Assembly (NCBI GenBank): GCA_012271015.1
Contig: JAAXHD010000123.1
Span: 32,138 to 96,137 of the forward strand
DNA: 64,000 nucleotides
From: Candidatus Poribacteria bacterium
Lineage (GTDB): Bacteria; Poribacteria; WGA-4E; WGA-3G
Reading direction: 5' to 3'
Positions 2,623 to 60,725 of this stretch are shown here, piece after piece. Under the pieces are notes generated by a model. It did not search any database. It saw nothing but the letters and a program-made list of their open reading frames with translations, and was not told the origin of the DNA. Made by a program: the position numbers and the translations under genes. Every line of letters starts with the position of its first letter. Position 1 is the stretch's first letter.

Positions 2623-2859
2623 TAACACAATATCATCAAAAAGCAGGTAATTCTAAAATCTACCATAGTTGCGTTCGGAGATGTACAACCATAGGGGTCA
2701 ATTTAGAATTTTCACGGCAGATAGGAGAAACTCTACAAATACCGCCCCTATGGGGCTTAGGTCTAGTGGGTGCCGCTTTTCTACAGAGATATCGTCCCTA
2801 CAGGACTGAAGAAGGGTTTTGGGTAGGCACGGTTTGGATCTAAGACTGGGGCGGTTAGG

Positions 2860-3111
2860 AAACCGCACCATAGGTGTCAATTTGAGAAAATGTGCGTATA
2901 TCTTGTTCCGAAAATCAAGGTATCCAGCAGAGATTTCCTTGGAGAGCATAGCAAAGATCCGGGGCATCTGTTAGAGGTCGTTTCAGTCCCGGAGGGGCGA
3001 CCTCTCTGTAGCAAATATCCTATAAATCCGTTGACCCCCGTAGGGGTGCCATCTCTGGTGGTGCTGCGACAACATCCGCACAAAGCCTTAAATTGACACC
3101 TATGGTGCGTT
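2860..3111. mobile_element. MITE-like element bounded by 21-bp terminal inverted repeats (CACCATAGGTGTCAATTTGAG ... CTTAAATTGACACCTATGGTG), with a partial third copy at 2662..2712
   Basis: The left arm at 2860-2880 and the reverse-complement arm at 3089-3109 match at 20/21 positions. A related direct copy (ataggggtcaatttagaa plus tgcgttcggagatgtacaacc) occurs at 2662-2712, and tgcgttcggagatgcacaacc again at 3109-3129. There is no convincing ORF inside. Confidence 0.4.
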
Positions 3112-3266
3112 CGGAGATGCACAACCTAACAGGTTATGCTACAAAGATAATAACTTGCGTTAAAACAGCAACGAAAACGTAGTCCGTAACGCAGTAGAGG
3201 ACGGCTCCAACGCGAAAATCTTGAAGTTTCAAACCACGTTACTTCTCCGCAAGGAATAATTAAAAA

Positions 3267-4148
3267 ATGAAAATACTTATAACCGGCGCGAGCGGTAGGC
3301 TCGGTGAGTTTGTAATCCGAGAATTGGTGTCAGATCACGCATTAGTGCTGATGTCACGCAGAACACCACCCGCTGAATTCTCGCACCTCCCATTCATCCA
3401 AGGCGATCTGAATACCTTTGAGGACTGCCAGCGTGCTGTTGAAGGTGTGGACGCTATCCAACATCTCGGTGCACAACCCGGTCCCGTCGATCATCCAGAT
3501 TTACGTGCCCGCGCCGCTGAGCAGGGGATCCCCTTCGACGCAACCTTCAAAACGAACATGCTTGGCACTTACTACCTCATGCAAGCCGCAATTGAAGCAG
3601 ATGTCCACACGGTTGTGATGTCCGGAAGCAATTGCGCCTTAGGACACGGCTTTCGGATTAGCAAAACCCACATTCCAGTAGACTACCTCCCTATAGATGA
3701 AGAACACCCGTGCTATCCTGAAGACTCCTATAGTTTCTCTAAACGGTGTGGCGAGGATTTGTTGGCAAGTTACACCCGCGCTTATGGCATCCGAACCTAC
3801 GTTACACGTCCTGCGGGTATCAGCCCAGAAGAACGGAGAAAACAGATGGCGGAAAATGCTAAACCGACAACGGCTTGGACACCGTGGCTCTGGTGTTGGG
3901 TTGGGAGCGAAGATGTCGCAAGTGCACACCGCCTGATTATGGAAAAAGCGGATACGTTACCCGCGCACGATGTCTACTTTTTGAACGCCGACGACACTTC
4001 AGCCTTGGAACCTTCTCAAGAGTTAGTCGAGCGTTTTAAACCCGAATTTCTTCTGAAGGTGAGAACGCTTGAAGGACATCAATCGTTTATTACTTGCGAT
4101 AAACTGAAAAACGCCGTCGGATGGCAACACAAAACATCGTGGCGATAA
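3267..4148 (+). CDS. NAD-dependent epimerase/dehydratase (extended SDR family)
   Basis: N-terminal Rossmann motif ITGASGRLG and catalytic YxxxK (YSFSK). It is preceded by the conserved leader CCGCAAGGAATAATTAAAAAATG. Confidence 0.7.
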   Translation: MKILITGASGRLGEFVIRELVSDHALVLMSRRTPPAEFSHLPFIQGDLNTFEDCQRAVEGVDAIQHLGAQPGPVDHPDLRARAAEQGIPFDATFKTNMLGTYYLMQAAIEADVHTVVMSGSNCALGHGFRISKTHIPVDYLPIDEEHPCYPEDSYSFSKRCGEDLLASYTRAYGIRTYVTRPAGISPEERRKQMAENAKPTTAWTPWLWCWVGSEDVASAHRLIMEKADTLPAHDVYFLNADDTSALEPSQELVERFKPEFLLKVRTLEGHQSFITCDKLKNAVGWQHKTSWR

Positions 4149-14715: not shown

Positions 14716-16662
14716 ATGTCAAAAGAAAATTTCAATGAAAAACTGACCGCACTCCTCAAAACCCACCCTGACTTCCTTGACGATGCAGGCGAACTCATCC
14801 CCGCCGCCGTCAGAGACCACGCATGGCAACTCAACCACGATCTCATCAAATTATTGCTCACCGACGATCAGATAAAGACAGCCTTCTTTGACGAAATTGA
14901 CGGACATTGGGTTTTCAATCACAACACCTTCATCAACTACATCACCGACAAAAATTTTCTCGCCAACTCTTACACGCAATTCCGCAACAAAATCGGCTTG
15001 AACATCGGTGGTAAATTTTTACGCGAACGCGGTGAGGTCTCACTCGTTTGGCCCTACAAGGACTGCGTCTTGGAGGGCGGACAGACGAAGGAAGAGGAGA
15101 AACGCAAAGAGATATTCTTCAATGAAACGCTTGCACAGGACGAAATCAACCGGATGTTCGATCCGAAGGTTCTCACCAATTGGAAACGCCACACTGCCGA
15201 AGACGAACAAGACGTAACGGACATCCAACGAGACGAAAATGGAATCATTCTCGAAAACCTCATCATCAAAGGCAACAATCTCATTGCACTCCACACGCTC
15301 AAACAACAGTTTCGCGGGCAGGTCAAACTCATTTACATCGATCCGCCGTATAATACCGGCACTGACAGTTTCGGCTATAACGACAGTTTTAACCATTCCA
15401 GCTGGCTGACGTTCATGAGAAATCGGTTGGAAGTCGCGCGGGAATTTCTGAAGGATGATGGAGTTATCCTGATTCACATCGACGATCAGGAAATGCACTA
15501 TCTAAAACTCGTGGCTGACGATATATTCGGGAGAGACAATTTTATCGCCACTGTCCCAAGAAAAACTAGAAGTGGAAGAAGCAACGTACCTTACAACCTG
15601 TCTCAGGATTTTGACTGGATATTGATGTACTCAAACAAAGCGGTCAAAAAAAATAATATCTTCCAGCGGACAATTTCAAGAAAATATCATACAACCCCTG
15701 ATTTTCCTGACGATGAATGGAGATTAAGCGATATTACAGTTCAGGCTACAATTCATGAAAGACCGAATTGCAACTTCACATTAGTAAATCCGAAAAATGG
15801 GCAAGAATATCCGGTGAATCCTGATCGCTGCTGGGGCTTTCCGGGAAATTCATTTCATGACTACTACAAACGAGGGAAAATTGTTTTTCCTGGGGATTAT
15901 GATTTTCTCAACATAAGACAACCGGCATTGCGCGTTTTCAAATCTGAGGAGATTGAAAGAAAAGGGATAGATTACGATAAGGCTTTCGTCTCATCAGACT
16001 TTCTCAATCAGGCCATGGACGAATTACTGAAAAGTATGGTCAACAGGAAAGGCACGGACGAAATTGTAGAGATTTTTGGAAGAAAAGCATTCGCATATCC
16101 AAAAAATGAACTATTGATGCAACGCATTATTGAATATACAACAAAAGAAGGGGATATTGCTTTGGATTTTCATTTAGGCTCAGGCACAACTGCTGCTGTT
16201 GCTCACAAGATGGGCAGACAATACATCGGCATCGAGCAAATGGATTATGCTGAAACTCTTCCAGTTGAACGCGTAAACAAAGTAATCGCTGGTGAACAAG
16301 GCGGTATCTCTAAATCCGTCAAGTGGCAAGGCGGGGGTGATTTCATCTATTGCGAACTGATGCCATACAATCAAGCGTATATGGATAAAATCCAATCCAC
16401 CCAATCCTCCGAAGCACTGGTAGCCCTCTGGCGAGACATCGCCGAAGACGCATTCCTGAACTGGTACGTCAACCCTGAAGTCCCGGAAGAAGCCATAAAC
16501 GATTTCATCGCCATCGGCGACGTAGAGAAACAGAAACACCTACTCGCTGAATTGCTGGATAAGAATCAACTCTACGTCAACCTCTCCGAAATGGAGGATG
16601 CGGATTTTGAGGTGAGTGCAGAAGATAAGATGTTGAATAAGGCGTTTTATGGAGATTCTTGA
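14716..16662 (+). CDS. mod: Type III restriction-modification system methyltransferase (Mod), beta-class N6-adenine/N4-cytosine MTase
   Basis: Motif IV IYIDPPYNTG lies upstream of motif I FHLGSGTTAAVA (order IV-TRD-I). It is followed by a Res-type helicase-nuclease. Confidence 0.8.
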   Translation: MSKENFNEKLTALLKTHPDFLDDAGELIPAAVRDHAWQLNHDLIKLLLTDDQIKTAFFDEIDGHWVFNHNTFINYITDKNFLANSYTQFRNKIGLNIGGKFLRERGEVSLVWPYKDCVLEGGQTKEEEKRKEIFFNETLAQDEINRMFDPKVLTNWKRHTAEDEQDVTDIQRDENGIILENLIIKGNNLIALHTLKQQFRGQVKLIYIDPPYNTGTDSFGYNDSFNHSSWLTFMRNRLEVAREFLKDDGVILIHIDDQEMHYLKLVADDIFGRDNFIATVPRKTRSGRSNVPYNLSQDFDWILMYSNKAVKKNNIFQRTISRKYHTTPDFPDDEWRLSDITVQATIHERPNCNFTLVNPKNGQEYPVNPDRCWGFPGNSFHDYYKRGKIVFPGDYDFLNIRQPALRVFKSEEIERKGIDYDKAFVSSDFLNQAMDELLKSMVNRKGTDEIVEIFGRKAFAYPKNELLMQRIIEYTTKEGDIALDFHLGSGTTAAVAHKMGRQYIGIEQMDYAETLPVERVNKVIAGEQGGISKSVKWQGGGDFIYCELMPYNQAYMDKIQSTQSSEALVALWRDIAEDAFLNWYVNPEVPEEAINDFIAIGDVEKQKHLLAELLDKNQLYVNLSEMEDADFEVSAEDKMLNKAFYGDS

Positions 16663-17078
16663 TGGAAGCGGTCACGCATATTGACACCCTTGATGAAGAA
16701 AAAACGCAGCAGTGGCGGCGTGCAATTTTCTATCTGTATCTGCTGATTTTGCATCGCCGACCGACTGAGGAACACGACGAATTGAAAACGCTGGTTCACC
16801 AGCATATCCAAGAAAGTTCCCGTAGAGAGGAGGGAGAAACAATGGCACAGACAATGGCTGAGTATCTCATGGAACAAGGTGAAAGACGCGGTGAAAGACG
16901 CGGTGAAACGCACGCAAAACGTGAAGCGGTCCTCAAACTGCTGCGATTTCGATTCAATACCGTTCCTGAATCCATTACCAGTAGGATTACCTCAATACGG
17001 AGTCCATCGCGTCTCGATGCCCTCTTTGAGGCAGTCTTGACTGCCCAAACACTCGATGACATTGATTGGGGAAACTAA
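16659..17078 (+). CDS. Small DUF4351-like protein inserted between mod and res
   Basis: 139 aa. The C-terminal half (..AEYLMEQGERRGERRGE..LKLLRFRFNTVPESITSRITSIRSPSRLDALFEAVLTAQTLDDI) matches the G-rich triplet plus LL.RFG..P..i...I pattern of DUF4351 (C-terminal domain of Rpn/YhgA-like proteins). ATGA overlap with the mod stop; 23-nt overlap with the res start. Confidence 0.45.
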   Translation: MMEAVTHIDTLDEEKTQQWRRAIFYLYLLILHRRPTEEHDELKTLVHQHIQESSRREEGETMAQTMAEYLMEQGERRGERRGETHAKREAVLKLLRFRFNTVPESITSRITSIRSPSRLDALFEAVLTAQTLDDIDWGN

Positions 17079-19701
17079 GGTTACGATGCTTGAGCAATTT
17101 CTTCATGAACAACTCGAAATCGCGTTCAACTTTGGGATCCCCAAACCGGAAATGCCGGATAGCATTACGCAAAATCTGAATCCCACGTTTGAACTCCGTC
17201 CCTACCAAGAAGACGCGTTTGCGAGTTTTATTCACTACTTCAGTAACGACCTGCCGGGCAAAGAAAACCCCTTACACCTGCTGTTCAACATGGCGACCGG
17301 TAGTGGCAAGACGCTCATCATGGCAGGTTTGATTCTCTACCTTTATGAGAAAGGCTACCGCAACTTCCTTTTTTTCGTTAATTCCACCAATATCATAGAA
17401 AAGACGAAAGACAACTTTCTCAATGCGCGCTCCGCAAAATACCTATTCAGTGAAGATATCCATATCGACAGGGAGCACGTTGCGGTCACAGAAGTGGAAA
17501 ATTTCGAGGGAATCAACGAGAAATCTATCAATATTTGCTTCACAACGATCCAGAAACTCCACTCAGATCTAACAGCGGAAAAGGAGAACGCCCTAACCTT
17601 TGAAGATTTCAAGGAAAAGGAAATTGTTCTCTTGGCAGATGAAGCGCACCACATGAACGTGCAGACCAGAACTCAGCAGTTGGAACTGGAATTGGAAGAG
17701 CAGAAGCCGAGTTGGGAGAATACGGTTGAGAACATCTTTCGCGCGAACGCAAATAACCTATTGTTGGAATTCACGGCTACGCACGATTACGAAACCCCAA
17801 ACATTGTGGATAAGTACCGAAACAAGATTATCTATCGTTACGATCTCGTAAACTTTCGGAACGATCGGTTCTCAAAAGATGTTGTCCTTGTCCATTCCGA
17901 CTTGGAGCCAGAATCCCGCATCTTGCAGGCACTCATTCTGAATCAGTACAAAGAGGAGGTCGCGGCGGATAGTGGCATCAATCTAAAACCCGTCATTTTG
18001 TTCAAGGCACAACGAACAATCGCGCAATCGCAAGAGAACAAGGTAAACTTTCATAAACTCATTGATGAACTCACTGCCGACCAGATTGACAGTTTTCGAG
18101 GATCAGATCTTGAGATCGTTCAACGGGCATTCAGTTTCTTGGATAAAAAGATGACTACTGAAGAGTTGGTCCAACGTCTAAAATCGGCATTCCGTGAGGA
18201 GCACTGCCTCTCGGTTAACAATGACAATGAAAAGGAGACGTATCAACTCCGCCTTAACAACCTTGAAGACAGAAGCAATCCGATCCGTGCCATCTTCGCC
18301 GTGCAGAAACTCAACGAGGGGTGGGATGTGTTGAACCTCTTCGATATCGTCCGCTGTTATGAAGCCCGCGACTCAGGAAAGAGCAAAATCGGAAAAACAA
18401 CGATATCCGAGGCACAACTCATCGGGCGCGGCGCACGCTATTTCCCCTTCGTTTTGCCTGACCATACAGACCGGTTCCGCCGTAAGTTTGACGAAGACCT
18501 CGACCACGAATTGCGCGTACTGGAAGAACTTCACTACCATAGTATCCACGATTCGCGCTACATCTCTGAAATCCGCACTGCACTGATTGACGAAGGTATG
18601 ATGGACGAACGCCTTGAGACTCGCGAGCTCAAGTTAAAATCCGAGTTCAAGGACACCGATCTCTACAAACACGGCGTTGTTTGGCTCAACAAACAGGTGC
18701 CGAAAGATTATCAACACGTCCAATCTTTTGGAGATTTGGCGCAACTCAGTGTCCGGCAGAAAAACTACGAACATACCATCCATACCGGAACCGGCGGCGT
18801 GACGGCTGTCATGGAGAACAGTGAGACACCGGTGCAACAGGGCCATCCAAGCAGTCGGGATATTCAGGTAGTTGACATCGAACAGAATATCGTCAAATCC
18901 GCTATTGCTCGCAATCCGCTTTTCTCGTTTGCATCACTTAAACAGTATTTTCCGCACTTGGCATCCGTCCGAGAATTCATTACCTCCAAAAACTATCTGG
19001 GTGGCTTAGCAATCACTTTCAAAGGACACCTCACTGACTTGGAAGAGAATCGCTCTGCAAAACTGGCGGCGTGTGAGGGGCTGCTCAGTCAAATCGAATC
19101 CGAAATTCGCAAAGAGATTACTGAATACCAAGGCACGAAACACTTTTATGAGCAGCAAATTCTCGTTGTTTTCACTGACAAAACCCTGAAATTCAGTGTG
19201 GACACACCGCGTGCCGATGACAGCGACACGGCGTATCTGGTCAAAGTCAGCGACTGGTTCGCTTATGATACCTTCTACGGTACGAGTGAAGAAAAGGCGT
19301 TCGTACAGATGCTGGACAGATGGATTCAGGAATCGGAGAAAACCTACGAGGATATCTATCTGCTTCGCAATGAGGGGCATTTCTCACTCTATAACTTCTT
19401 CGATGGCAGCCCTTTTCAACCTGACTTCGTGTTGTTCTTGCGTGAGAAAAATGGAGAATCCCTAAGTTACCAACTCTTCATTGAACCCAAAGGTGAGCAT
19501 CTGGCGGAAATTGACCGATGGAAAGAGAAGTTCCTACAGGAGATCCGTGCGGAATTCCGCAGTAAAATCTTGACGGAGAACAGTAAATATCGCGTCATCG
19601 GTGTCCCCTCCTTCTATCACGAGAGATACGAGAATCAATTCAAGGACGACCTTAATGCGGCATTAACTGATACATCTCAAACACAAGAACACAATGACTG
19701 A
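17056..19701 (+). CDS. res: Type III restriction enzyme Res subunit (SF2 helicase plus C-terminal PD-(D/E)xK nuclease)
   Basis: Walker A MATGSGKT, DEAH box LLADEAHH, C-terminal FQPDFVLF...FIEPKG endonuclease motif. An alternative start is ATG 17086 (AAGG SD). Confidence 0.8.
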   Translation: MTLIGETKVTMLEQFLHEQLEIAFNFGIPKPEMPDSITQNLNPTFELRPYQEDAFASFIHYFSNDLPGKENPLHLLFNMATGSGKTLIMAGLILYLYEKGYRNFLFFVNSTNIIEKTKDNFLNARSAKYLFSEDIHIDREHVAVTEVENFEGINEKSINICFTTIQKLHSDLTAEKENALTFEDFKEKEIVLLADEAHHMNVQTRTQQLELELEEQKPSWENTVENIFRANANNLLLEFTATHDYETPNIVDKYRNKIIYRYDLVNFRNDRFSKDVVLVHSDLEPESRILQALILNQYKEEVAADSGINLKPVILFKAQRTIAQSQENKVNFHKLIDELTADQIDSFRGSDLEIVQRAFSFLDKKMTTEELVQRLKSAFREEHCLSVNNDNEKETYQLRLNNLEDRSNPIRAIFAVQKLNEGWDVLNLFDIVRCYEARDSGKSKIGKTTISEAQLIGRGARYFPFVLPDHTDRFRRKFDEDLDHELRVLEELHYHSIHDSRYISEIRTALIDEGMMDERLETRELKLKSEFKDTDLYKHGVVWLNKQVPKDYQHVQSFGDLAQLSVRQKNYEHTIHTGTGGVTAVMENSETPVQQGHPSSRDIQVVDIEQNIVKSAIARNPLFSFASLKQYFPHLASVREFITSKNYLGGLAITFKGHLTDLEENRSAKLAACEGLLSQIESEIRKEITEYQGTKHFYEQQILVVFTDKTLKFSVDTPRADDSDTAYLVKVSDWFAYDTFYGTSEEKAFVQMLDRWIQESEKTYEDIYLLRNEGHFSLYNFFDGSPFQPDFVLFLREKNGESLSYQLFIEPKGEHLAEIDRWKEKFLQEIRAEFRSKILTENSKYRVIGVPSFYHERYENQFKDDLNAALTDTSQTQEHND

Positions 19702-49891: not shown

Positions 49892-50329
49892 TTAGGCCTC
49901 TTTGTTCTCCGTGTGTTTTCGTAATTGGCGGGTGTCTTCTCTGAGTTGGTCGGTCAAGGTTTTCTGGGTGTCTTCAAGAGCGTTGACTTCTTGGGGTGTG
50001 ATATTGAGGGGTTCCTCTTGTTGGTTGACGGCGTTGCATGCGGCGATGGTTTTGAGGATCTGGGCGGCTTGGGTGATGTATTTGAGGTCGCGCTTTTCGA
50101 TGACGAGTTCCTTTGTGAGACGGTATAGAAATTCCAATTCGAGGATGAGGTTTTCAGGGAGGCTGAGACTGGCACTGCGGTAACTCGCGAGGTATTGTTC
50201 ACGGGCTTCGTTGAAGAGGGTTCGATATTTCCGTGGGAACTGGGGGTGTGTGATGTTGAGTCTGCAGAAGTTATTTGCGCACTTTCCTTTGAGCATCTCA
50301 TTGTAGCGATTGATCCGTGCGATGATCAT
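49892..50329 (-). CDS. Hypothetical protein with a possible HEPN-like C-terminal Rx4H motif
   Basis: 145 aa with RQLRKH near the C-terminus. No other recognisable motif. Confidence 0.25.
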   Translation of the reverse strand: MIIARINRYNEMLKGKCANNFCRLNITHPQFPRKYRTLFNEAREQYLASYRSASLSLPENLILELEFLYRLTKELVIEKRDLKYITQAAQILKTIAACNAVNQQEEPLNITPQEVNALEDTQKTLTDQLREDTRQLRKHTENKEA

Positions 50330-50337
50330 TTCCCAGT

Positions 50338-50634
50338 TTACAAATACCTGTCTTCTTTGTTGGATGCCTTTTTTGTTGTTATGATTTTATACAAATCGCA
50401 TTGATAGATGTTAGGTTGGTGGCCGTTTAGGTAATGCTTTTCAGTAAAGTGTTCCTTTTTCCGTAAGATTTCTTCTACAAGTTCTTTTTCGAGTTTATCT
50501 GCGCTGTCTTCGAGGAACGCTTCGGCGATATGGGGTGCAAAAACAATCATGAAGTTTTCAAGGATCTCACTGGATTTCATAAAACAGGCGTATCCCTTAA
50601 CGACGAATTCTTTGTGTTCTTCTTGGAGTTTCAT
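50338..50634 (-). CDS. Hypothetical small protein (98 aa), adjacent partner of the 49892 gene
   Basis: ORF only. 8-nt spacing to the downstream gene suggests a two-gene module. Confidence 0.25.
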   Translation of the reverse strand: MKLQEEHKEFVVKGYACFMKSSEILENFMIVFAPHIAEAFLEDSADKLEKELVEEILRKKEHFTEKHYLNGHQPNIYQCDLYKIITTKKASNKEDRYL

Positions 50635-50830
50635 GGCAATTGCTCCTTAAAATGTTACGTTTTTATAACATTTTTAAATTGGTATTTCTGTATGGATTTT
50701 CGGTTGACAGCCCAGTGGGGACGTGGGGTTCTTGGGTGTTTCTCGGTTGCGATTTCGTGTTACAAATTAGGAAACCCAGTTGGAAAAACGAGCCAGGGTG
50801 ACTTGGAACAGATGGAATCGGAAATCGCTC

Positions 50831-53800
50831 CTATAATGGAGTGGAGTCGATATCCGAATCTTGGAAGATTGGTTTGAGATAGGCGGGATCGTCAGTGCGG
50901 AAAAGGATGTGCCATTTTTCTGCGAAAGTGTTTCTATCCTCGTCCGGATACCTTCCTATGAGATCGGACAGACTGGTTCTCGAAATTACAAAGGCATCCA
51001 TTTGGACATGTTCATAACGGAGTCGTTCATAAGAGATGTCCCGGAGTCGCTGGAAAAGGGTAAGTTTATCATTATCCTCGTTGATGTCCTCGTGGACCAT
51101 GCCGTGCGGTTCAATAAAGACGATGCGCTGTTTAACGCCGTCAAGGATCCAGAGGATAAAATCAGGGTAGAATCCTTCGTTCTCATAGAAGCCAACTCCT
51201 TTGCCACGACTCTGGTTACGTAAGAGGAAAACCTCTTTCTGACAAGGACGTTTCTGGTGGTGTTGACGGAGGTATTGATTTAAATCTTCCACGAAATCTC
51301 TTTCACTGTCTTCCAAGGCAGGGGGAGTGGTCCGCCATAAGTTGTTTCCAATGCCCATGCTTAGGAGGGATCGATAAAGATGTTCTTCGTTGGTTAGGAG
51401 GGGTTGATAGAGATGACGTTCGTTATAGACATTCGGTAGAACGGTTAGGCTGGGTCCATATATCTCTTCACTTTCCATGAGATTTTCAATCCGTGGTTGA
51501 ATTTCCTGCGCTTCGGTTCTTGGCACATGAACAATCCAGTCGGGAAAGTTGTTCTCATCTTCGGTTTCCTCACCTAAGCGGCGTATCCGAATCCTATCAT
51601 CGTTCCATCGTTTTTGAATAATACGGTAGTATTTAGCAATATATTTTCGGAGAAGCGTAAGGACTAATTCTTCTAAACGTTCAAGTTCTACTGTTGATGT
51701 CGGGACGACTTCGGATTCATCCATGACGGTAAGTTTATAGACGGGTTTGTTCGGGTTGAGGATCTCCTGAAGAGTAGTGGTATCAAAGATGAGGTTGTGG
51801 TATCCCTTTTCGTGTTTATATGCTAGGAGTTGCAGGTAAATTTTTTCCCAGTCTACAAGCGCTAAGCTTGGTTCTGGAATGTAGGTGGGAAGCGTTCCTT
51901 CGGCGTGTTCAGTATGGATACCGCGCTGTGAACTGCTTCCAACGATGCCAATACTTTGAGTGGTGTGAGTAATAATTGTGCCTGTGAGTACTTTAAGAGG
52001 TTCGCACTGCCCTTTCGCCCCTTCATGGTAGGGAGTAACTTTCGGGATGCAAAGCCGTTTCTCGTGGTAAACATCGTTTCGTCTGATTTCAATTGTCAGT
52101 TGGATAGGTTCATCAAGTTGTATGCCTTCGCGCAGGAGGTAATCTCGGAATTGTGCCATGAAGTTGGCACGGACAGCAAAAATGTTCAACGTTTCCAAAA
52201 GAGGGAGGTTGCGCGGATGCTCGCCATCCAGGGCAGCACTGCGTCTGAGACTCATGTTCTTGCCACGTAAGCGGACACCCCTACCGAACAATTGAATAAT
52301 CTGGGAGCCTTCCTGCCTGCCGATGTTGAGCAAACCCATGGCGGTGACGCGCCAACTGTCCCATCCTTCGATGAATTTTTTTGCACCAATGAGAATATGA
52401 ATTGAACTATCGGATTTGTTGATGTCATTGAAAAGGCTTTCCGTGAGTACATCTTCAGAATCTGTTTCAATGCCTGCATCATCGTTTTCAACGAGTTTTT
52501 TGAAGGCAGCGGTATCTCCAATGTAGATAAGACCAAAGTTTTCCCTGCCGTGAGTGGTTTTCAATGCGATCTCACCCTGAGCGTTTCGAACATCTTGTAG
52601 GTGTAACGCGCCGCTTGTGTTGGTGTGGAACACCTCGTCAAGAATGCCAGTATAGATTTGGGCTGATGTCTCGTCGAAAGTTTTGAGATAATTGAGCCGA
52701 GTGTGGAAGATATCCGTGTCGTTGTCATCAGATAAGCCTGAATTGCCATTAATAATTTTCTCAATAGCGTTAGTCGCCCAATTTTCTTCGTTTTTTACGA
52801 ACCAATGCAGGAAACGGATGACATTGAGGACATCAGAGCGGGCGCGGCGGTTTTCGGTATAGACAGCGTTGACTTTACTCCCCACAAATGCCCATAGCGG
52901 AGAGTCCAATCCATAGGCACGAACAGCCTTGGTGTTTTGTTTGAAATAGCGGCGTTGCTCGTAGAAGGTGAGTAGATTGGCTAAAAGCAGCATCTCAGTT
53001 TGGGACTCTTCATCTTGGCGAACGTTGAGGATGCGGAAGTTTTTTCCGTAACCATCTTCGTAGAAATACCGGTAGGAGTAATCAAAGACGATAGCTTTTC
53101 CGTATTCCTCGACGAGATCTGCATTTTTCGCGGCGGTGAGTGCCTGCCCGAAGGTGGCACTGTATTCAAAAGTAAAGCCGGTTTCGCCGAGTCTATCGCG
53201 GATTTTGCGCCAGACTTCGCCGCCACTCCCCTTATGTCCTTCATCAACAAGAATGAGATTGTTCCCCTCAAAAGCCTCAACCGGTACACTTTCGCCTACA
53301 CCTGTCTTTTCTTCCACCACCTTTGTGATTTCAATGACTTGCACAGCATCGTGATCACGAGCGTTCCGATTGCCATCAACGTTGAAACGTTGGCATCGGA
53401 TATCGGAGTTTGTGAGTTCACGGATATGTTGTTCACTTAAGCCCTCGTTGGATGTGATAAGAACAACATGGTCCAATTCCTCTTTGCTGTAGTGGAGATA
53501 CTGATGGTAGTTGATGTGCATGATGAGGGTTTTACCGGCACCCGTTGCCATCCAGAAGGCGAGTTTCTCAATATCTTCATTTGTGAATAGGGTGTCCATA
53601 GCATCGCCGGGGGCTCTCGCATCGTTCTGCGTTTGGACAAAATCGTTGAGTTGGCGTAAAAATTCACCGCGTCTATTGAGTTTCCAATCTAAAAAGATTT
53701 CGGTATAGAGAAGTGCTAAGTATTGAAAATAGCGGAGGACAATTGGCTGTGTGCGTCTGCTGTTTATGGCGGACAAGTGCTGTTTGATATTCGTATCATA

Positions 53801-54013
53801 GGTTGGGAGTTCGGCTTCGATCTCTGGTTTCAAATTTGGGCGGGACATCAGAAATTTGCAGATTGCGGAGTGTCCATCTGGGGTGAATCCCTCTTCTTCG
53901 TTTTTGACATCGTTGAGGAGAGCCCGCGTGGTTTTATACCCGAAGAGGTCATTGAGCCACGCATGAAGTATGAGGTGATTGTCAAGTTGGCGTTGTGAAT
54001 TGTTTCTGGGCAT
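50831..54013 (-). CDS. Type III Res-like helicase-nuclease, enlarged (1060 aa)
   Basis: Walker A MATGAGKT. DExH box LILVDEGH. Motif VI QLFGRGVRL. C-terminal FYPDFILW...FIEPHG paralleling the FQPDFVLF...FIEPKG of the first Res (His in the Lys position). Confidence 0.6.
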   Translation of the reverse strand: MPRNNSQRQLDNHLILHAWLNDLFGYKTTRALLNDVKNEEEGFTPDGHSAICKFLMSRPNLKPEIEAELPTYDTNIKQHLSAINSRRTQPIVLRYFQYLALLYTEIFLDWKLNRRGEFLRQLNDFVQTQNDARAPGDAMDTLFTNEDIEKLAFWMATGAGKTLIMHINYHQYLHYSKEELDHVVLITSNEGLSEQHIRELTNSDIRCQRFNVDGNRNARDHDAVQVIEITKVVEEKTGVGESVPVEAFEGNNLILVDEGHKGSGGEVWRKIRDRLGETGFTFEYSATFGQALTAAKNADLVEEYGKAIVFDYSYRYFYEDGYGKNFRILNVRQDEESQTEMLLLANLLTFYEQRRYFKQNTKAVRAYGLDSPLWAFVGSKVNAVYTENRRARSDVLNVIRFLHWFVKNEENWATNAIEKIINGNSGLSDDNDTDIFHTRLNYLKTFDETSAQIYTGILDEVFHTNTSGALHLQDVRNAQGEIALKTTHGRENFGLIYIGDTAAFKKLVENDDAGIETDSEDVLTESLFNDINKSDSSIHILIGAKKFIEGWDSWRVTAMGLLNIGRQEGSQIIQLFGRGVRLRGKNMSLRRSAALDGEHPRNLPLLETLNIFAVRANFMAQFRDYLLREGIQLDEPIQLTIEIRRNDVYHEKRLCIPKVTPYHEGAKGQCEPLKVLTGTIITHTTQSIGIVGSSSQRGIHTEHAEGTLPTYIPEPSLALVDWEKIYLQLLAYKHEKGYHNLIFDTTTLQEILNPNKPVYKLTVMDESEVVPTSTVELERLEELVLTLLRKYIAKYYRIIQKRWNDDRIRIRRLGEETEDENNFPDWIVHVPRTEAQEIQPRIENLMESEEIYGPSLTVLPNVYNERHLYQPLLTNEEHLYRSLLSMGIGNNLWRTTPPALEDSERDFVEDLNQYLRQHHQKRPCQKEVFLLRNQSRGKGVGFYENEGFYPDFILWILDGVKQRIVFIEPHGMVHEDINEDNDKLTLFQRLRDISYERLRYEHVQMDAFVISRTSLSDLIGRYPDEDRNTFAEKWHILFRTDDPAYLKPIFQDSDIDSTPL

Positions 54014-54033
54014 GGCAGTTTTCTGCTGCAGAT

Positions 54034-57000
54034 TTATTGTGAAAACATTAATCGTTTGAAGAGCGGATCTAAAGATTCTGCTTCTGGAACAATACTATCT
54101 GTGTTAACATAGACCTTGTCCGCTCCATCTGTGAGTTTGTGCCCTTCAACAAAGAAGAAATCTCGTTCCCAATCTTCTGGGCCCCAGCCTTCAGTATCAC
54201 GCCAGATAATGATGGTAGTTTTTTGTCCGACTATACCGCGGTAGATGAGATAACGTCTATCATCATCATCATACAAGCATTGGCGGGTTTTGACTGTAAT
54301 TCCAAGAAGATAGTTAAAAGTTTCGGGCAAGTCCACAGTCTGTGTCTGCGTCTGTAGACTTTCAGCGATGTTAAGTCGATAGTTAAACGGGTTTTGGAGT
54401 TTAGCAACGTTCAAAAATGTTGGACTTTCACGAGTTTCGCTACCGAGTAGGTAACTGAGTAGCGGCTCCTCAAAGAGCGAGTTTTCGCGTTCGGTGAATT
54501 CAACGTTATTGAGCGCATCTTCATAGGATTCAATACGTTGGTATTTGATGGTGTGGGAGAGACGGGAGTCGGGGTTAGAAACCCCTCCTACAAAGACAGG
54601 TTTCGCATCTTTCCACTTTTCGGCATAGACGGCTTTTTTGATACGTGGTTTGAGGACGGTGTCGAAATGATCTCCCATTTCAATGAGGATGTATTTACGA
54701 TTGCCATTATCTTTACGGTTGAGGTTGATAGTTGCGTGGGCAGTGGTCCCAGAACCCCCGAAATAATCAAGAACGATGTCCCTGTCGGTACAATTCATGT
54801 TAATTAGATATTTTAATAGTGAAGTAGGTTTAGGATAGTCGAATTTATCAGTGCCGAGGGTTTCTTCTAGTTCTGTGTTTGCGTCTTCATTGGTTCCTAC
54901 TTGACATTCTTTTTGTGTAATTAGATTTGAGGGGACTTTAACTCGTTTTTGCTGATTTCTTTCGTAACGGATAGAAAATTTATCACTCTTTATGTGAAAG
55001 AGCGTTCCAGCTTCAATTTCGTTTTGAACAGTTTCCTGCACCCATTTAAATCTGCCTTCCATAATCAGGTTATTTAGAAATTGGCCGTTCCTCACCTCTA
55101 TTTCTTCAACGAGTTTAATTTTGCCATACTTTTGGGCTTTATAAATACCATCTTTAAGGTTAACCCTACGAAATGCGTCTTTTGGAAACTCAAGCTGGCG
55201 AATAGTATTTGCTTCATTGAGTAACGGCATATCTCCGCCTTCTGTCTGTCCACCGAAGAGATTCAGCTTTTTCGATTTCCTATAGCAGATGAGCGGTTCC
55301 ATTTTTCTTCTAACTGTTTTTGATAGACTTGGAGGAGTAGCGGTCCGCATCCAAAAGAATTGTGCAGTAAAGTTCGACTCTCCAAAAATCTTATTCATTA
55401 ACATCCGTAAGTGATGCACTTCATTATCATCAATTGATATGAAGATCGCCCCTTCTTGGGATAGCAATTCGTGTGAAATTGCAATTCGATCTGCTATGAA
55501 GGAAAACCAACTTGAATGTTGATAAGAGTTTTTGTAAATAAAATCAGTCCCACCCGTATTGTAAGGTGGGTCAATGCAGATGGTTTTTAGGGATTCACGA
55601 TATTTCTTTGTCAGCAGATTTAGTCCTTGGAAGTTTTCTCCGTGGATTAACAAGCCATCTGTTTCGTTATCCAGATCGTCAAAATGTGACAGGAGGCGAT
55701 CTATGAAATCAGAACCAAAATGACAGGTGTCTAAGACGAGGTTTGGGTTTTCTTTGAGAAAGTCAATGGAGGGCGGTTCGGTATAGGTAGAATTAACGAG
55801 ATCAGCATCTATTTCGTGAATAGCAAAGAGACGTTTCCACTCTTCAAGCTGCGCAGTGTTTTGGACAATTTCAGAATAGAATTCTTCTGGAACTTGGTCA
55901 AGTGTGAGGCAGTAGTCGGTGGAGAGGACGAACTTCTTTTTAAGCCAGAGTGTCTTTTGGAATTCTTCAATGTGGGAGAGAAAATCAATGATTTGGGTGG
56001 CGATGTGGTGAACGAGTTTCGCGGTTTCAAGCCAATTATTAATATTTGTTAAACAAGGATTTACCCCCCCCCCCACTTTACTGATGTTAAGTATAAACTC
56101 AGAAAGTAGAAGAACTTCGTTTTTGATATAGACATCAAGTTCGCGGGCGAGGAACTGATTCAGGCCCTTATGAATGAAGAAGTCTGCAGTGTTGCGGCGT
56201 GTGTAGGTGCGGAGGTGTTTTTTGAGAGTAGTTTCACCTTCCGTTTGGTGTTCTAAAGCAGATAGGGCATTGTAATGACCTGTTAGGCATTTCATGATTT
56301 CAGGTTCAACAGCTTCAAGGATTTTATCCTGCTGTTTTTGTCCGCTGTAGCGTTTCTTTTCTGCATCGGTGAGGGGTCGGTATTCAAAAGGGATGCGGAT
56401 TTCATCAGTTTCCGATTTATAGGTTGTCTCGGCAGATAGAGGCACGAAAAAACGTTTCGTGCCTTTGACGTTATCCTTTTCAATATCTACATCACGAAGG
56501 TCAAAGGTAACGGTAATACCTTGGGATTTGAATCTGTAGGTAGAGAAATGCTCGCCGCTTTTGACATAATATTGGTCTCGGTTTGCCCAGTGGAGGTAGA
56601 CTTCCTCGCCGTTGTATGGAACAGCGTAGCGTTCAGTCTGCGAGTAGCGTCGGCGCGGGATGAAGTCGCCATTATCGTAGTAGCGGGAAAAGAAGGTATA
56701 GAGATGGTTAAAGACGGCATCTTCTCGCTGGTTTCGGGTTTGCGGGGAGCCGATTTGTTCTTTTGCCTCCAGGTATTTCTGAACAAGAGGTGTTGCTTTG
56801 TATGTTTCATTGATTAGGTTTCCGTCGGCATTTAGAACTCCATCGCCAAAGTTTTGGCGAATCTGTTGTGCAAGGTTCTCCATTTCTTGGTGCTCAGATT
56901 CAATATCAGTGTTAGCGTCAAGTGCCGTGTTAACGATAGTAGGAAGTTCTTCGTCGAGGAAGGCTTGGATTTGATCGCGTCGATAGTTGATGATACGGTA

Positions 57001-57081
57001 GATACCGAAGTCGAGGTCGGCGGCATCTGCGCGGAAGAGTTGTTGGAGGAGAGTTTGTAATTTTTGTTGGGATGTTTGCAT
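54034..57081 (-). CDS. Type III Mod-like beta-class DNA methyltransferase, enlarged (1015 aa, about 500-aa N-terminal extension)
   Basis: Motif IV ICIDPPYNTGGTD about 250 aa upstream of motif I DYFGGSGTTAHA. The block DPPYNTG..HSSW..F...R......L...G.I.I.ID..E...L is more than 50% identical to the first Mod. Confidence 0.65.
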   Translation of the reverse strand: MQTSQQKLQTLLQQLFRADAADLDFGIYRIINYRRDQIQAFLDEELPTIVNTALDANTDIESEHQEMENLAQQIRQNFGDGVLNADGNLINETYKATPLVQKYLEAKEQIGSPQTRNQREDAVFNHLYTFFSRYYDNGDFIPRRRYSQTERYAVPYNGEEVYLHWANRDQYYVKSGEHFSTYRFKSQGITVTFDLRDVDIEKDNVKGTKRFFVPLSAETTYKSETDEIRIPFEYRPLTDAEKKRYSGQKQQDKILEAVEPEIMKCLTGHYNALSALEHQTEGETTLKKHLRTYTRRNTADFFIHKGLNQFLARELDVYIKNEVLLLSEFILNISKVGGGVNPCLTNINNWLETAKLVHHIATQIIDFLSHIEEFQKTLWLKKKFVLSTDYCLTLDQVPEEFYSEIVQNTAQLEEWKRLFAIHEIDADLVNSTYTEPPSIDFLKENPNLVLDTCHFGSDFIDRLLSHFDDLDNETDGLLIHGENFQGLNLLTKKYRESLKTICIDPPYNTGGTDFIYKNSYQHSSWFSFIADRIAISHELLSQEGAIFISIDDNEVHHLRMLMNKIFGESNFTAQFFWMRTATPPSLSKTVRRKMEPLICYRKSKKLNLFGGQTEGGDMPLLNEANTIRQLEFPKDAFRRVNLKDGIYKAQKYGKIKLVEEIEVRNGQFLNNLIMEGRFKWVQETVQNEIEAGTLFHIKSDKFSIRYERNQQKRVKVPSNLITQKECQVGTNEDANTELEETLGTDKFDYPKPTSLLKYLINMNCTDRDIVLDYFGGSGTTAHATINLNRKDNGNRKYILIEMGDHFDTVLKPRIKKAVYAEKWKDAKPVFVGGVSNPDSRLSHTIKYQRIESYEDALNNVEFTERENSLFEEPLLSYLLGSETRESPTFLNVAKLQNPFNYRLNIAESLQTQTQTVDLPETFNYLLGITVKTRQCLYDDDDRRYLIYRGIVGQKTTIIIWRDTEGWGPEDWERDFFFVEGHKLTDGADKVYVNTDSIVPEAESLDPLFKRLMFSQ

Positions 57082-57105
57082 ATTTTTTTAATAAAGCGGA
57101 GGCAC

Positions 57106-57702
57106 TCAATTTTGATTGCGTGCGTTTATTTCCATCAGTTTTTCGCGAGCCAATATTTCAAAGACCGGCATCACTCTTTCGACGAGTTCGTCGTATCGTC
57201 CAGACAAGCGATCATGTGCTGTCTGTAGAGCTTTTAGTTCGCTTGTAACCGCATCTAACGCGGCGCGGAGGGTTGCATTTCCTTCCTGAAGCGTGTTATG
57301 CTGATCCAGCAGGATACTCTGGGATTCCTGAAGCGCGTTATGCTGATCCAGCAAGGAATTATATCTCCGATCAGCCGTGCTTTGGAAAGTTATAAGTTCC
57401 TGCTGTAGGGTGCTGTGCTGTCCTTGGAGGCTTTCATGTTCTTGCTGTAGGGTGCTGTGCTGTCCTTGGAGGCTTTCATGTTCTCGCTGCAGCGTGATGT
57501 GTTCCTGTCGTAGGCTTTCATGTTCTCGCTGCAGCGTGATGTGTTCCTGCTGCAGGGCGTTGCATCGCTTATCTAATTCCTCAGAGAGTGCTGTGTATCG
57601 ATCGACCTGGTTTTTCAACCACCATAAGCCGATAATACTGATACTCAGCACACCCATGTCTATTAAGCTGATAGTTGCCCAACTGAATTCTAAGAGTCCC
57701 AT
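57106..57702 (-). CDS. Membrane-anchored coiled-coil protein with tandem 17/18-residue repeats
   Basis: N-terminal TM segment, then HITLQREHESLRQE x2 and HSTLQQEHESLQGQ x2, encoded by nucleotide tandem repeats at about 57400-57560. Confidence 0.45.
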   Translation of the reverse strand: MGLLEFSWATISLIDMGVLSISIIGLWWLKNQVDRYTALSEELDKRCNALQQEHITLQREHESLRQEHITLQREHESLQGQHSTLQQEHESLQGQHSTLQQELITFQSTADRRYNSLLDQHNALQESQSILLDQHNTLQEGNATLRAALDAVTSELKALQTAHDRLSGRYDELVERVMPVFEILAREKLMEINARNQN

Positions 57703-57852
57703 TTTTCCCTTTGTGACTTATGTTTGTAACTGTTTCGAGAAGGCAGGTTTTTGCGTTGAGAAAAGTATAGCACTTTTATTTATGTATGTCAAACGTTTTT
57801 CTGAATGGGCAGGGTCATTTTGCAGTGTTTTGACAATAGCAGAAAACGGAGA

Positions 57853-58839
57853 TTACGGTGTTGGAATTATAGTATCGCGGACTTCGTTGACAATGGCATC
57901 GGGTTTTATGCCTTCGCCTTGTCCCTCGAAGTTAAGAAGGATGCGGTGACGGAGGGCAGGCAGTAACACGTCATCGATATCTGAAAAGGCAACGTTGTAA
58001 CGTTCATCGAGGAGGGCATTGATTTTGGCGGTGAGTGCTATCGCTTGGACGCTCCGAATCCCTGCACCGAGATGGACATAGCGTTTAACAATCTCCGGTG
58101 CGTCCTCAGAATTCGGATGTGTACCTCGGACAAGTCGGATGATGTGCCGTTCGACATGCTCAGCAATGATGACCTGTGGCACGAGTTGACGCATCTCGTT
58201 GAGCGTCTTGGCATCCGTCACCTTGCCGATAATGATCTCAGCACCGGATGTGGTGCGGTGCAGGATTTCGACAATCTCATCTTCACCCGGAAAGTCAATC
58301 AGGAGTTTGAATAGAAATCGGTCAAGTTGCGCCTCTGGAAGCGGATAGGTGCCTTCCATCTCCAACGGGTTTTGCGTGGCGAGTACACAAAAGGGTTCCT
58401 CTAATTTATGGCTGGTACGTCCAACGGTAACAGTCCGCTCTTGCATCGCCTCAAGGAGCGCGGATTGCGTGCGTGGCGTGGCGCGGTTAATCTCGTCAGC
58501 GAGGATGAGTTGAGAGAAAATGGGTCCCTGTTGAAATTCAAACTGTTTTCCGCCGTGTTCATCTTCAACGAGAAGTGTTGTGCCTGTGATGTCGGAGGGC
58601 ATCATGTCCGGCGTAAACTGGATGCGCTTGAAGGAGAGGTCGAGTGCCTCGCTGAGGGTATAAATGAGTTGCGTTTTGCCTAAGCCAGGGATGCCTTCAA
58701 GGAGGGCGTGCCCGTTGGCAAGTAAGCAGAAGAGTACACCTTCAATAATAGCGTCTTGACCGACAATGCGTTTCTGGACTTCGGCTTTGACATTGTAAAA
58801 GGTTTCACGGAACTGCTGGATTTGGGTTTCTAAGTTCAT
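57853..58839 (-). CDS. MoxR-family AAA+ ATPase
   Basis: Walker A GIPGLGKT, Walker B LLVDE..R, and the typical MoxR length (328 aa). Confidence 0.75.
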   Translation of the reverse strand: MNLETQIQQFRETFYNVKAEVQKRIVGQDAIIEGVLFCLLANGHALLEGIPGLGKTQLIYTLSEALDLSFKRIQFTPDMMPSDITGTTLLVEDEHGGKQFEFQQGPIFSQLILADEINRATPRTQSALLEAMQERTVTVGRTSHKLEEPFCVLATQNPLEMEGTYPLPEAQLDRFLFKLLIDFPGEDEIVEILHRTTSGAEIIIGKVTDAKTLNEMRQLVPQVIIAEHVERHIIRLVRGTHPNSEDAPEIVKRYVHLGAGIRSVQAIALTAKINALLDERYNVAFSDIDDVLLPALRHRILLNFEGQGEGIKPDAIVNEVRDTIIPTP

Positions 58840-60016: not shown

Positions 60017-60292
60017 TTACGGGGCATACACTTTCCCGCGCGTTCGGATTCCTCTGATGATGCATTTACGATGTTGCTTGTCTATCCTATAGATAATCCT
60101 ATAACGTCCAACACGATAACGATATAATCCGGCGTACCGCCCGTGCAATTTGGTTATATTAGGTCCAAATAACGGATTGTTCATTAAGATGTTAAGTGCA
60201 GTATTAACTCGCCGCTCCATATCAGCATCAAGCCTACCGTAATCAGCAATTGCCTCATTTGTGAATTGGACTTCAAACGTCTTGCTTAACAT
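60017..60292 (-). CDS. Type II toxin-antitoxin system RelE/ParE-family toxin
   Basis: C-terminal ..YRVGRYRIIYRIDKQHRKCIIRGIRTRG is typical of RelE/ParE toxins. Probable start MLSKTF. Confidence 0.6.
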   Translation of the reverse strand: MLSKTFEVQFTNEAIADYGRLDADMERRVNTALNILMNNPLFGPNITKLHGRYAGLYRYRVGRYRIIYRIDKQHRKCIIRGIRTRGKVYAP

Positions 60293-60503
60293 CAGCCCAA
60301 CTTTTGAGTCTGCCGGCCTTTTCATCGGCCTCCGCACGTTCTAAACTTTTCACAATCTCTGCGTTACTTGTCAGTTCGTGTGTTGCATTCCATGCTTCCT
60401 TATCGTAGAGATAGTTCATATAATCTATAGCAGCCTTGAGTTTTTTCTTTGGGAGTCGCTCTATTAACATCATAGCTTGTTTCTGCAGTTTTGAATTCTT
60501 CAT
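60273..60503 (-). CDS. Putative antitoxin partner of the RelE/ParE toxin
   Basis: 76-aa ORF (MKNSKLQKQAMMLIERLPKKKLKAAIDYMNYL...) with a GGAG SD. Overlaps the toxin start by about 20 nt. Confidence 0.45.
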   Translation of the reverse strand: MKNSKLQKQAMMLIERLPKKKLKAAIDYMNYLYDKEAWNATHELTSNAEIVKSLERAEADEKAGRLKSWADVKQDV

Positions 60504-60725
60504 TACAGAACTCCTTAAAGGATAATTTTCTCGAATTTTTGTTAATATGGTATCAGAAGTCTGAAGCGTTGTCAAGTTTGGGATGCGGTTGGGGGATTTA
60601 GTCTGGGAAGAGACTAAATCCGTAGCACCAGAACGGATGCGCGTGTGGCATCCGAGGACAACGTGTGGACTTGCGGGACAATGTATTACATTCCGCACCT
60701 ACCCTGATTGGGAAAAGTCTAAAAA

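Follow-up and report, generated by a model that had tools for sequence, protein, structure and literature searches.

The mod2-res2 locus and its family

The subject of this study is a pair of adjacent genes, mod2 and res2, at positions 50831..57081 of a stretch of 64,000 nucleotides (nt) from a Candidatus Poribacteria bacterium (contig JAAXHD010000123.1); the whole stretch is called the window here. Together they encode a restriction-modification (R-M) system of Type III, and a first system of this type, mod1-res1, lies at 14716..19701. The methyltransferase Mod2 (1015 amino acids (aa), of the Eco86II-like large-subunit type) is encoded on the minus strand at 54034..57081, an assignment based on profiles and on matches to Protein Data Bank (PDB) chains and to a protein of Escherichia coli F9792; its reading frame is intact in the window, that is, in the ON state. 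Profiles and homology identify the product of 50831..54013, on the same strand, as the Type III Res subunit (Res2, 1060 aa), in which a superfamily 2 (SF2) ATPase is followed by a predicted C-terminal nuclease domain. The two genes have the same orientation, with mod2 upstream and 20 nt between its stop codon and the res2 start. The first-pass annotation of this DNA had reported two open reading frames (ORFs) of these sizes and an E-P-H motif in the second, and both are present.

All the features that follow are on the minus strand. In mod2, an N-terminal module of residues 1-335 (56077..57081) stays encoded in out-of-frame alleles and is followed by a run of eleven guanines (G11; 56064..56074) within codons 335-340 (K V G G G V), a candidate phase-variation switch. 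The translation then reaches motif IV, DPPY, at residues 504-507 (55561..55572), with D504, P505 and P506 invariant in our alignment A2; the target recognition domain (TRD), at about residues 575-745 (54847..55359), which is hypervariable among orthologues; and the S-adenosylmethionine-binding motif I, FGGSGTT, at residues 774-780 (54742..54762), whose F774 and G776 are invariant in A2. The order of the motifs, IV before I, is that of the beta class. For Res2 we used A1, an 18-sequence cross-phylum Res alignment whose numbering is one below the true residue numbers because Met1 was omitted. Its columns are invariant at the Walker A motif MATGAGKT (residues 155-162; 53528..53551), at DEGH (257-260; 53234..53245) and at motif VI, QLFGRGVR (574-581; 52271..52294). 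The nuclease domain (residues 896-1010; 50984..51328) aligns with the C-terminus of Res1 and has invariant columns of its own, among them the PDF (51158..51166) of YPDF at residues 949-952. E968-P969-H970 (51104..51112) belongs to FIEPHG (966-971) and occupies a site at which D-P-K is the family majority state.

Profile searches place both proteins in Type III families. Mod2 matches Pfam N6_N4_Mtase (E 9.6e-34) and the PADLOC profile MTase_III PDLC03646 (1057 positions; E 1.5e-178), and Res2 matches Pfam ResIII (E 2.9e-13) and PADLOC REase_III PDLC03654 (1154 positions; E 5.3e-154). In a PDB search the Mod2 core matched the solved Mod chains 6k0w, 4zcf (EcoP15I Mod; 4zcf_A, E 4e-30) and 7dsu. 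Res2 has more than 6800 homologues; the best 120 are each at least 71% identical to it over the full length, and those with a source name are all labelled Candidatus Poribacteria. Searches with tblastn also identified full-length relatives on plasmids of haloarchaea, Priestia, Klebsiella and E. coli. On the E. coli plasmid pEC316_2 the gene order is a helix-turn-helix gene, an SNF2-related protein, Mod (1046 aa) and Res (1120 aa). With the res gene of this plasmid as a blastn query we reached E. coli chromosomes, including that of strain F9792, where the order is SNF2 (frameshifted), Mod (1040 aa) and Res (1126 aa), and where the mod gene matches those of B4103-1 (100% identity) and NCTC86 (Eco86II; 99.9% identity).

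Mod2 and the F9792 Mod are 39% identical over 596 aa (residues 12-567, which include the whole N-terminal module; E 2.9e-113) and 33% identical over the last 305 residues (E 8.7e-42), with the TRD alone left unaligned, and in a BLASTP comparison Res2 and the F9792 Res are 34% identical across residues 5-1050 (E 2.6e-167). Because both proteins are thus homologous to the F9792/NCTC86 pair over their full length, we assign them to the Eco86II-type large-subunit Type III lineage. As far as its sequence tells, mod2-res2 is ordinary in kind, a further two-gene example of the catalogued Eco86II-like Type III subfamily.

Eco86II of E. coli NCTC86 produces N4-methylcytosine (m4C) at GAGCC and cleaves about 25 base pairs (bp) 3' of this site, and EcoF9792I and EcoB4103II are its isoschizomers; they form part of Type III group 3 (Murray et al. 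2021, PLoS One 16:e0253267; PMC8259958). Hemimethylation, ATP-dependent cleavage about 25 bp away and the use of two inversely oriented sites have been shown for Eco86II, and the extra helicase-like ATPase gene found 5' of its mod is dispensable for methylation, its product being undetected in a cleaving preparation (PMC8259958). Motif IV in the form DPPY is common to Type III Mods that produce N6-methyladenine (m6A) and to those that produce m4C (PMC8259958). It is therefore unsafe to expect two m6A motifs from the two systems of the window, as had been proposed, because the characterised relative makes m4C.

These assignments change the meaning of the enlarged subunits, which had been read as possible signs of a diverged Type III variant or of a composite module. 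The Type III part of that reading stands and most of the rest does not, the large architecture being that of an existing, large and partly characterised subfamily. The N-terminal extension of Mod2 is accordingly no novelty, since it matches a characterised Type III subfamily (PDLC03646, PDLC03654; PMC8259958). The reported figure of about 500 residues before DPPY is correct; this part of the protein is, however, only about 300-350 residues longer than in Mod1 or the EcoP15I Mod. Behind the module of residues 1-335 a helical linker extends it to about residue 470, and neither Pfam nor NCBIfam has a match to it. A search with residues 1-470 gave matches to 2455 representatives of clusters at 50% identity. 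Of these, 899 had E<=1e-30, and the match was almost always at the N-terminus of a protein of about 1000 aa; named carriers include Neomoorella thermoacetica, Synechococcus and Dehalococcoides mccartyi, the last with the label 'Type III restriction-modification system methylation subunit'. Foldseek gave no PDB relative for the model of the module, and the Mod module of about 470 residues spans more than 900 protein clusters. The TRD is hypervariable: the identity of Mod2 residues 551-750 to 15 intact Poribacteria Mods is 0.15-0.23, compared with 0.5-0.9 elsewhere in the protein.

Two observations on the wider family are added here. The Eco86II-type mod matches 167 E. coli genomes, in just 34 of which at least 80% of the gene is covered; among the matches listed, the lower-ranked rows (H82-H107) consist of two pieces, about 97% identical, that span only 52-54% of the gene, a pattern which suggests that they are TRD-swapped alleles. 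On the Priestia megaterium plasmid NZ_CP085421.1, which carries a relative with E-P-H (locus L079), the gene 5' of mod (1051..3996) is a fusion of a UvrD-like helicase with a PD-(D/E)xK/Cas4-like nuclease, and it differs from the SNF2 protein of the E. coli systems.

The nuclease motif of Res2

In Res2 the helicase motifs are all present, and the nuclease motif reads E...PD...E-P-H, with a fold search that did not reach significance. The contrast between the E-P-H of this protein and the E-P-K of the first Res, pointed out previously, is real (FIEPHG against FIEPKG). Histidine in place of the expected lysine is, however, no special feature of this locus: Poribacteria are uniform for it, and further lineages of the Res family show it too, among them that of the P. 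megaterium plasmid, whose Res has EPH. The His form is thus common in the family. The motif is EPH in 120 of the 120 close Res2 homologues and in all the Poribacteria loci. More distant members in other phyla have D-P-K or D-P-H, and DPK dominates among the 120 proteins nearest to the cross-phylum Res profile. Of the 244 Res family members that we compared, 130 have EPH, 109 have DPK and five have DPH, so that nothing but K or H occupies the last position. Among the His-bearing proteins are some that share 82-86% full-length identity with a Lys-bearing relative (for example P0408 with P0400 and P0392 with P0404), and the change between K and H has therefore occurred several times. The residues around this position are preserved: the Glu of helix 1, PDF, the acidic residue, Pro and Gly do not vary between phyla, nor does a Lys (K983) that follows 13 residues further on.

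A structure model of the domain obtained with AlphaFold2 (AF2), with a predicted local distance difference test (pLDDT) of 71 and a predicted template modelling score of 0.72, shows the order of the PD-(D/E)xK core, in which a helix and three strands are followed by a second helix and a further strand. In this model PDF starts the second strand, E-P-H ends the third, and K983 starts the next helix. The weak Foldseek list for the domain includes the PD-(D/E)xK nucleases Bax1, Nt.BspD6I, BstEII, NucS, Can2 and FokI. A review of the PD-(D/E)xK superfamily records cases in which the catalytic Lys has been relocated to the second core helix (PMC3424549), and among the papers that it cites is one proposing catalysis by His in BsoBI.

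Two interpretations of the histidine were considered. In the first, the change from K to H disables or strongly attenuates cleavage, and in Poribacteria the system acts mainly as a phase-variable epigenetic regulator (phasevarion) in which Res is kept as a translocase or as a methylation cofactor. Several facts agree with this possibility: the canonical Lys is replaced, throughout a host-associated phylum the system is handed down at one conserved place in the chromosome, its mod gene has a phase-variation repeat, and methylation by DthLIII and FnoB1III is reported to require Res (PMC8259958). Nevertheless, we consider it unlikely. A dead domain should drift; instead, the remaining nuclease residues (the Glu of helix 1, PDF, D/E, Gly and K983) are invariant across phyla and, within Poribacteria, fixed over overall identities of 58-87%. 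The Res ORFs are full-length in nearly all loci, and K or H alone is found among the 244 proteins.

The codons add a further argument, itself deduced from the genetic code. Replacing Lys by His takes two nucleotide changes, and yet the His form has arisen repeatedly. The two-nucleotide change, the tolerance of K and H alone and the frozen state of the site therefore lead us to the second interpretation, that the His form is probably active: Res2 would still be a working nuclease, perhaps aided by K983. Close orthologues that differ only in K versus H constitute a natural experiment on the catalytic Lys of PD-(D/E)xK enzymes.

The guanine tract within mod2

The first-pass annotation overlooked the G11 tract in its description of the mod gene. 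This tract (56064..56074) is the sole G or C run of at least 8 in the 64-kb window, and it satisfies the published criterion for a potential phase-variable Type III mod, which is a G[9] or GA[5] repeat inside the ORF (Atack et al. 2018, Nucleic Acids Research 46:3532; PMC5909438). The pattern around it surfaced while the variability of the TRD was being measured: about half of the Poribacteria mod genes lie in two frames, the change of frame is always near residue 335-345, and the junctions of the frames hold simple repeats. Among the Poribacteria orthologues, the alleles at this hinge have G7 to G14, C9, (GA)/(AG) repeats of 5 to about 15 units, or a short linker free of repeats. The reading frame is broken in 22 of the 31 repeat-bearing alleles and in none of the 33 repeat-free ones (Fisher p 2.5e-10), and the in-frame share of the repeat-bearing alleles (9/31) is not different from one third. 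In a comparison across species, alleles with the flank G(n)T[AG]AATCC keep the reading frame when the tract is G8 or G11 and lose it when it is G7 or G9. A TARA scaffold, which at 82-93% DNA identity is closest to the window, has G9 followed immediately by a TAG stop. The G run has been retained although its flanks are merely 80-93% identical. Repeats at the hinge, together with a frame status that tracks the length of the tract, are the signature of a phase-variable Type III mod, and phase variation is thus very probable in this lineage for mod2 and, through it, for the Type III enzyme as a whole. No hinge repeat tract was seen in the family members outside Poribacteria, and we found no literature report of a phase-variable R-M system in Poribacteria or in sponge symbionts.

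Because homopolymer lengths are error-prone in assemblies, we also considered whether the frame differences linked to the repeats could be errors of sequencing or assembly, mod being a constitutive single ORF whose G tract is an incidental Gly-Gly-Gly linker. Many of the loci come from long-read metagenome assemblies, in which such errors could inflate the out-of-frame count, and a clonal pair of ON and OFF alleles was not found. We regard this explanation as very unlikely for several reasons. Broken frames are likewise seen at (GA)n repeats (L009, L024, L025, L040, L057) and on scaffolds with names of the short-read style (k141_ scaffolds L002, L024 and L040; the TARA METAG scaffold L087), and the same G8 was recovered from two independent assemblies (L081, L082). 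Moreover, errors would leave unexplained both the presence of three repeat types at one site and the preservation of GGG Gly codons across flanks that are 80-93% identical.

Two other accounts of the split frames were considered. Programmed ribosomal frameshifting was rejected because the shift is +1 or -1 depending on the locus and the slippery element varies (G, C, GA). Genuine split genes, each with its own start, are unlikely because the downstream frame has neither an ATG nor a Shine-Dalgarno sequence; its in-frame TTG is an ordinary Leu codon in the ON alleles. A more elaborate proposal accepts the switch and gives it another outcome. The frameshift may turn the fused 1015-aa Mod into a free module of 335 residues plus a re-initiated Mod of canonical size (about 650-690 aa), so that the locus would toggle between two architectures with different activities, for example one proficient in restriction and one restricted to methylation, with a nuclease running on His. 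We find this quite unlikely. The position of the repeat at the hinge marks residues 1-335 of Mod as a separable unit.

Taken together, we consider it likely that mod2-res2 is an enzyme of the Eco86II subfamily of Type III systems in a two-gene form, with a His-form nuclease that most probably works and with stochastic expression driven by G11. If the enzyme behaves like Eco86II and EcoP15I, Mod2 would act as a dimer that recognises a short asymmetric site with its hypervariable TRD, and it would methylate one strand, as m6A or m4C, two products between which the sequence cannot discriminate. Res would bind Mod2 and use ATP to become a sliding complex, again as in Eco86II and EcoP15I, and cleavage would take place about 25 bp from the site once two unmodified head-to-head sites communicate. 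His may assume the role of Lys, and support may come from the invariant K983, which lies on the next helix. G11 would make mod expression stochastic: one G gained or lost would halt translation after the 335-residue module, and the OFF state would lose methylation and restriction together, restriction being lost along with Mod because a Type III Res needs Mod.

It is important to consider the observations that weigh against this interpretation. With regard to the family, tblastn searches of the window and of 77 loci, with the SNF2 protein of pEC316_2 and the upstream helicase of P. megaterium as queries, found no SNF2-like ATPase gene, which is the defining gene of the Eco86II group. In addition, the EcoP15I Res was not recovered from the PDB starting from Res2, and in the same searches, made with the single sequence and with the family profile, no solved structure matched the Res2 sequence. 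With regard to the nuclease, the characterised Eco86II-type Res carries DPK, not His, and the predicted fold has no significant Foldseek match (best E 0.08). The AF2 model of the N-terminal module, built from a 16-sequence alignment, is mediocre, with a mean pLDDT of 69.7 and values below 50 in the most conserved segments. With regard to the switch, the out-of-frame alleles come from metagenome assemblies, with the uncertainty in homopolymer length discussed above, and no near-isogenic ON/OFF pair was found, the closest pair being 93% identical.

The enlarged subunits and the His are explained by membership in the family, and the conserved hinge repeat is the more interesting point. If our interpretation is correct, the mod switch of Poribacteria would extend epigenetic and defence switching of the phasevarion type beyond host-adapted pathogens, and stochastic switching would reach an uncultivated and vertically stable phylum of sponge symbionts.

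Genomic context and comparison with known systems

The pair lies in a region of low guanine-plus-cytosine (GC) content (40-47% from about 49,900 to 57,800), with flanks of 52-54%. Upstream of mod2, on the same strand as the pair, are a coiled-coil gene of 198 aa with 42-bp tandem repeats (57106..57702) and a MoxR AAA+ gene (57853..58839), and two small ORFs lie downstream, in agreement with the gene arrangement described in the first pass. In Poribacteria the pair is often found between a side with MoxR, GFO/IDH/MocA and sulfatase genes and a side with GlcD and 2-hydroxyacid dehydrogenase genes. The flanking genes are about 90% identical to those of the window across Poribacteria, compared with 58-75% for Mod and Res. 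The contents of the site between MoxR and GlcD vary (L001, L002, L006, L012, L014, L032, L041, L066, L081-L091) and include Fic-domain proteins, Uma2-family nucleases, UPF0175/DUF3368 pairs and transposases; in L081 an operon of a cyclic-oligonucleotide-based antiphage signalling system (SAVED, SMODS, Cap2) adjoins the Type III pair. The MoxR-GlcD site is a hot spot for defence islands, and the pair lies in a variable, low-GC island between conserved core genes. Cargo also enters the pair itself, since about 40% of the loci hold 0.3-3 kb between mod and res, including MNT/HEPN in L068, an AbiEi/AbiEii-like pair in L065, insertion sequence elements in L004, L013 and L037, and two recurrent protein pairs, one of 130 aa and about 200 aa (L009, L010, L025, L045) and the other of 248 aa and about 170 aa (L004, L014, L017, L075).

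It had been suggested that the pair might belong, together with the MoxR ATPase, the coiled-coil membrane protein and one or both of the downstream small ORFs, to a composite defence module. The genes are on one strand and tightly spaced (24 nt from the coiled-coil gene to mod), and the coiled-coil gene has a promoter-like site upstream and stands directly before mod in at least 8 Poribacteria loci. These arguments are outweighed by the distribution of the partners, which away from this chromosomal site are not associated with the pair. Adjacency of Mod and Res is preserved in 77 loci from more than 10 phyla, in which there is no third conserved gene; the copies elsewhere in Poribacteria, and all those in other phyla, lack the MoxR-side and GlcD-side neighbours, Mod and Res alone being conserved. 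The MoxR, GFO/IDH/MocA and sulfatase genes and the GlcD and 2-hydroxyacid dehydrogenase genes are core neighbours, about 90% conserved, that accompany the pair only at this Poribacteria site. Depending on the genome, Fic, Uma2, the coiled-coil gene or combinations of these lie between MoxR and mod, or the interval is empty, and the PADLOC coiled-coil and AAA matches are at chance level only. A partnership with MoxR or with the coiled-coil protein was therefore rejected because of the genomic context, and a composite module that also counts the small ORFs is, in our view, highly improbable.

The two small ORFs, of 98 and 145 aa, are present on the same strand as reported, but they are the halves of one frameshifted gene of about 247 codons (49892..50634, minus strand), which is cargo of the island. 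They align with the N- and C-terminal parts of one protein of 235-267 aa in L030, L046 and L087, encoded by a single intact ORF at 8124..8867 of L087 and at 7301..8008 of L046, and the break in the window is a one-A difference in an A6/A7 run. Homologues of this gene lie between mod and res in L030, L038, L046 and L047. The string RLNITH, which had been read as a HEPN-like Rx4H motif in the 145-aa ORF, is conserved in three homologues, but no HEPN profile matches it. Searches of Pfam, PADLOC, NCBIfam and PHROGs with the small ORFs gave neither HEPN nor any other significant family, only sub-threshold hits to DUF2280 (E 0.0018) and phrog_546, and we rejected the HEPN identity because profile support is lacking in these four databases.

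Other features of the region were recorded. The 42-bp tandem repeat of the coiled-coil gene (57402..57543; 3.4 copies, 91% matches) encodes QQEHESLQGQHSTL-like units. A hydrophobic segment lies at the N-terminus of the protein, which measures 139-198 aa among its relatives. A gene for a ParE-family toxin (60017..60337, minus strand; Pfam E 5.7e-9) overlaps an upstream ORF that is conserved alongside it in other Poribacteria (together 60017..60698), and the two are probably a ParDE-type toxin-antitoxin pair, located in a local GC dip (0.46). Individual Poribacteria genomes carry two or three copies of the large Type III system at different sites: OZ244048.1 (L030, L038, L047), OZ244616.1 (L022, L045) and CBDAUH01 (L043, L046).

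Our study also compared the pair with the first Type III system of the window (14716..19701), which had been described as clearly paralogous. Both are Type III systems and share the DPPYNTG neighbourhood, FxGxG, the helicase motifs and PDF...FIEPxG; Res1 (17056..19701) carries QPDF and FIEPKG. The degree of kinship was overstated, however. The Mod cores are 25% identical (E 1e-27), the two Res proteins align in patches only (Walker A, the C-terminal helicase motifs and the last 71 residues, with 27% identity and E 4e-6), and Mod1 and Res1 match other PADLOC clusters, PDLC03635 and PDLC03651. The identity of the Mod cores and the separate clusters rule out a recent duplication; on these alignments, the pairs are two old Type III lineages in one genome. 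Mod1 further differs from Mod2 in having the Pfam TypeIII_RM_meth N-terminal domain, Res1 has the canonical E-P-K, and the first system is devoid of a long G or C run. The 390-bp gap between Mod1 and Res1 (16662..17056) contains a possible 139-codon ORF with a TTG start (16659..17078); at 16878..16908 it also has 2.6 copies of a 12-nt unit that is repeated perfectly.

Among the characterised enzymes, Eco86II resembles the pair most extensively: its Mod of about 1040 aa has the same N-terminal module of about 470 residues, its Res of about 1126 aa is homologous over the full length, and the mod-res order, the DPPY and FGG motifs, the helicase motifs and the nuclease motif YPDF...(D/E)P(K/H)G are shared. 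The differences are that Eco86II has DPK where Res2 has EPH, that its TRD is unrelated to that of Mod2, and that a conserved SNF2-related gene lies 5' of its mod, whereas the 198-aa coiled-coil gene lies 5' of mod2. EcoP15I and EcoPI (PDB 4ZCF) share with the pair a beta-class Mod with a central TRD and a Res composed of an SF2 ATPase and a C-terminal domain of the PD-(D/E)xK type, predicted in the case of Res2; Mod2 has about 350 more N-terminal residues, and Res2, which has an extra N-terminal region and insertions, is too diverged from the EcoP15I Res for a sequence match. Like the mod genes of phasevarions (modA, modH and others), mod2 has an ORF-internal run of at least 9 G, belongs to a host-associated bacterium and exists in multiple TRD alleles, and databases contain its ON and OFF forms at about 1:2. 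In contrast to those genes, mod2 has its repeat at a domain hinge, roughly 1 kb from the start of the gene, and the OFF form therefore still encodes the module of 335 residues; moreover, G, C and GA repeats arose at one site in different alleles, in an uncultivated sponge symbiont.

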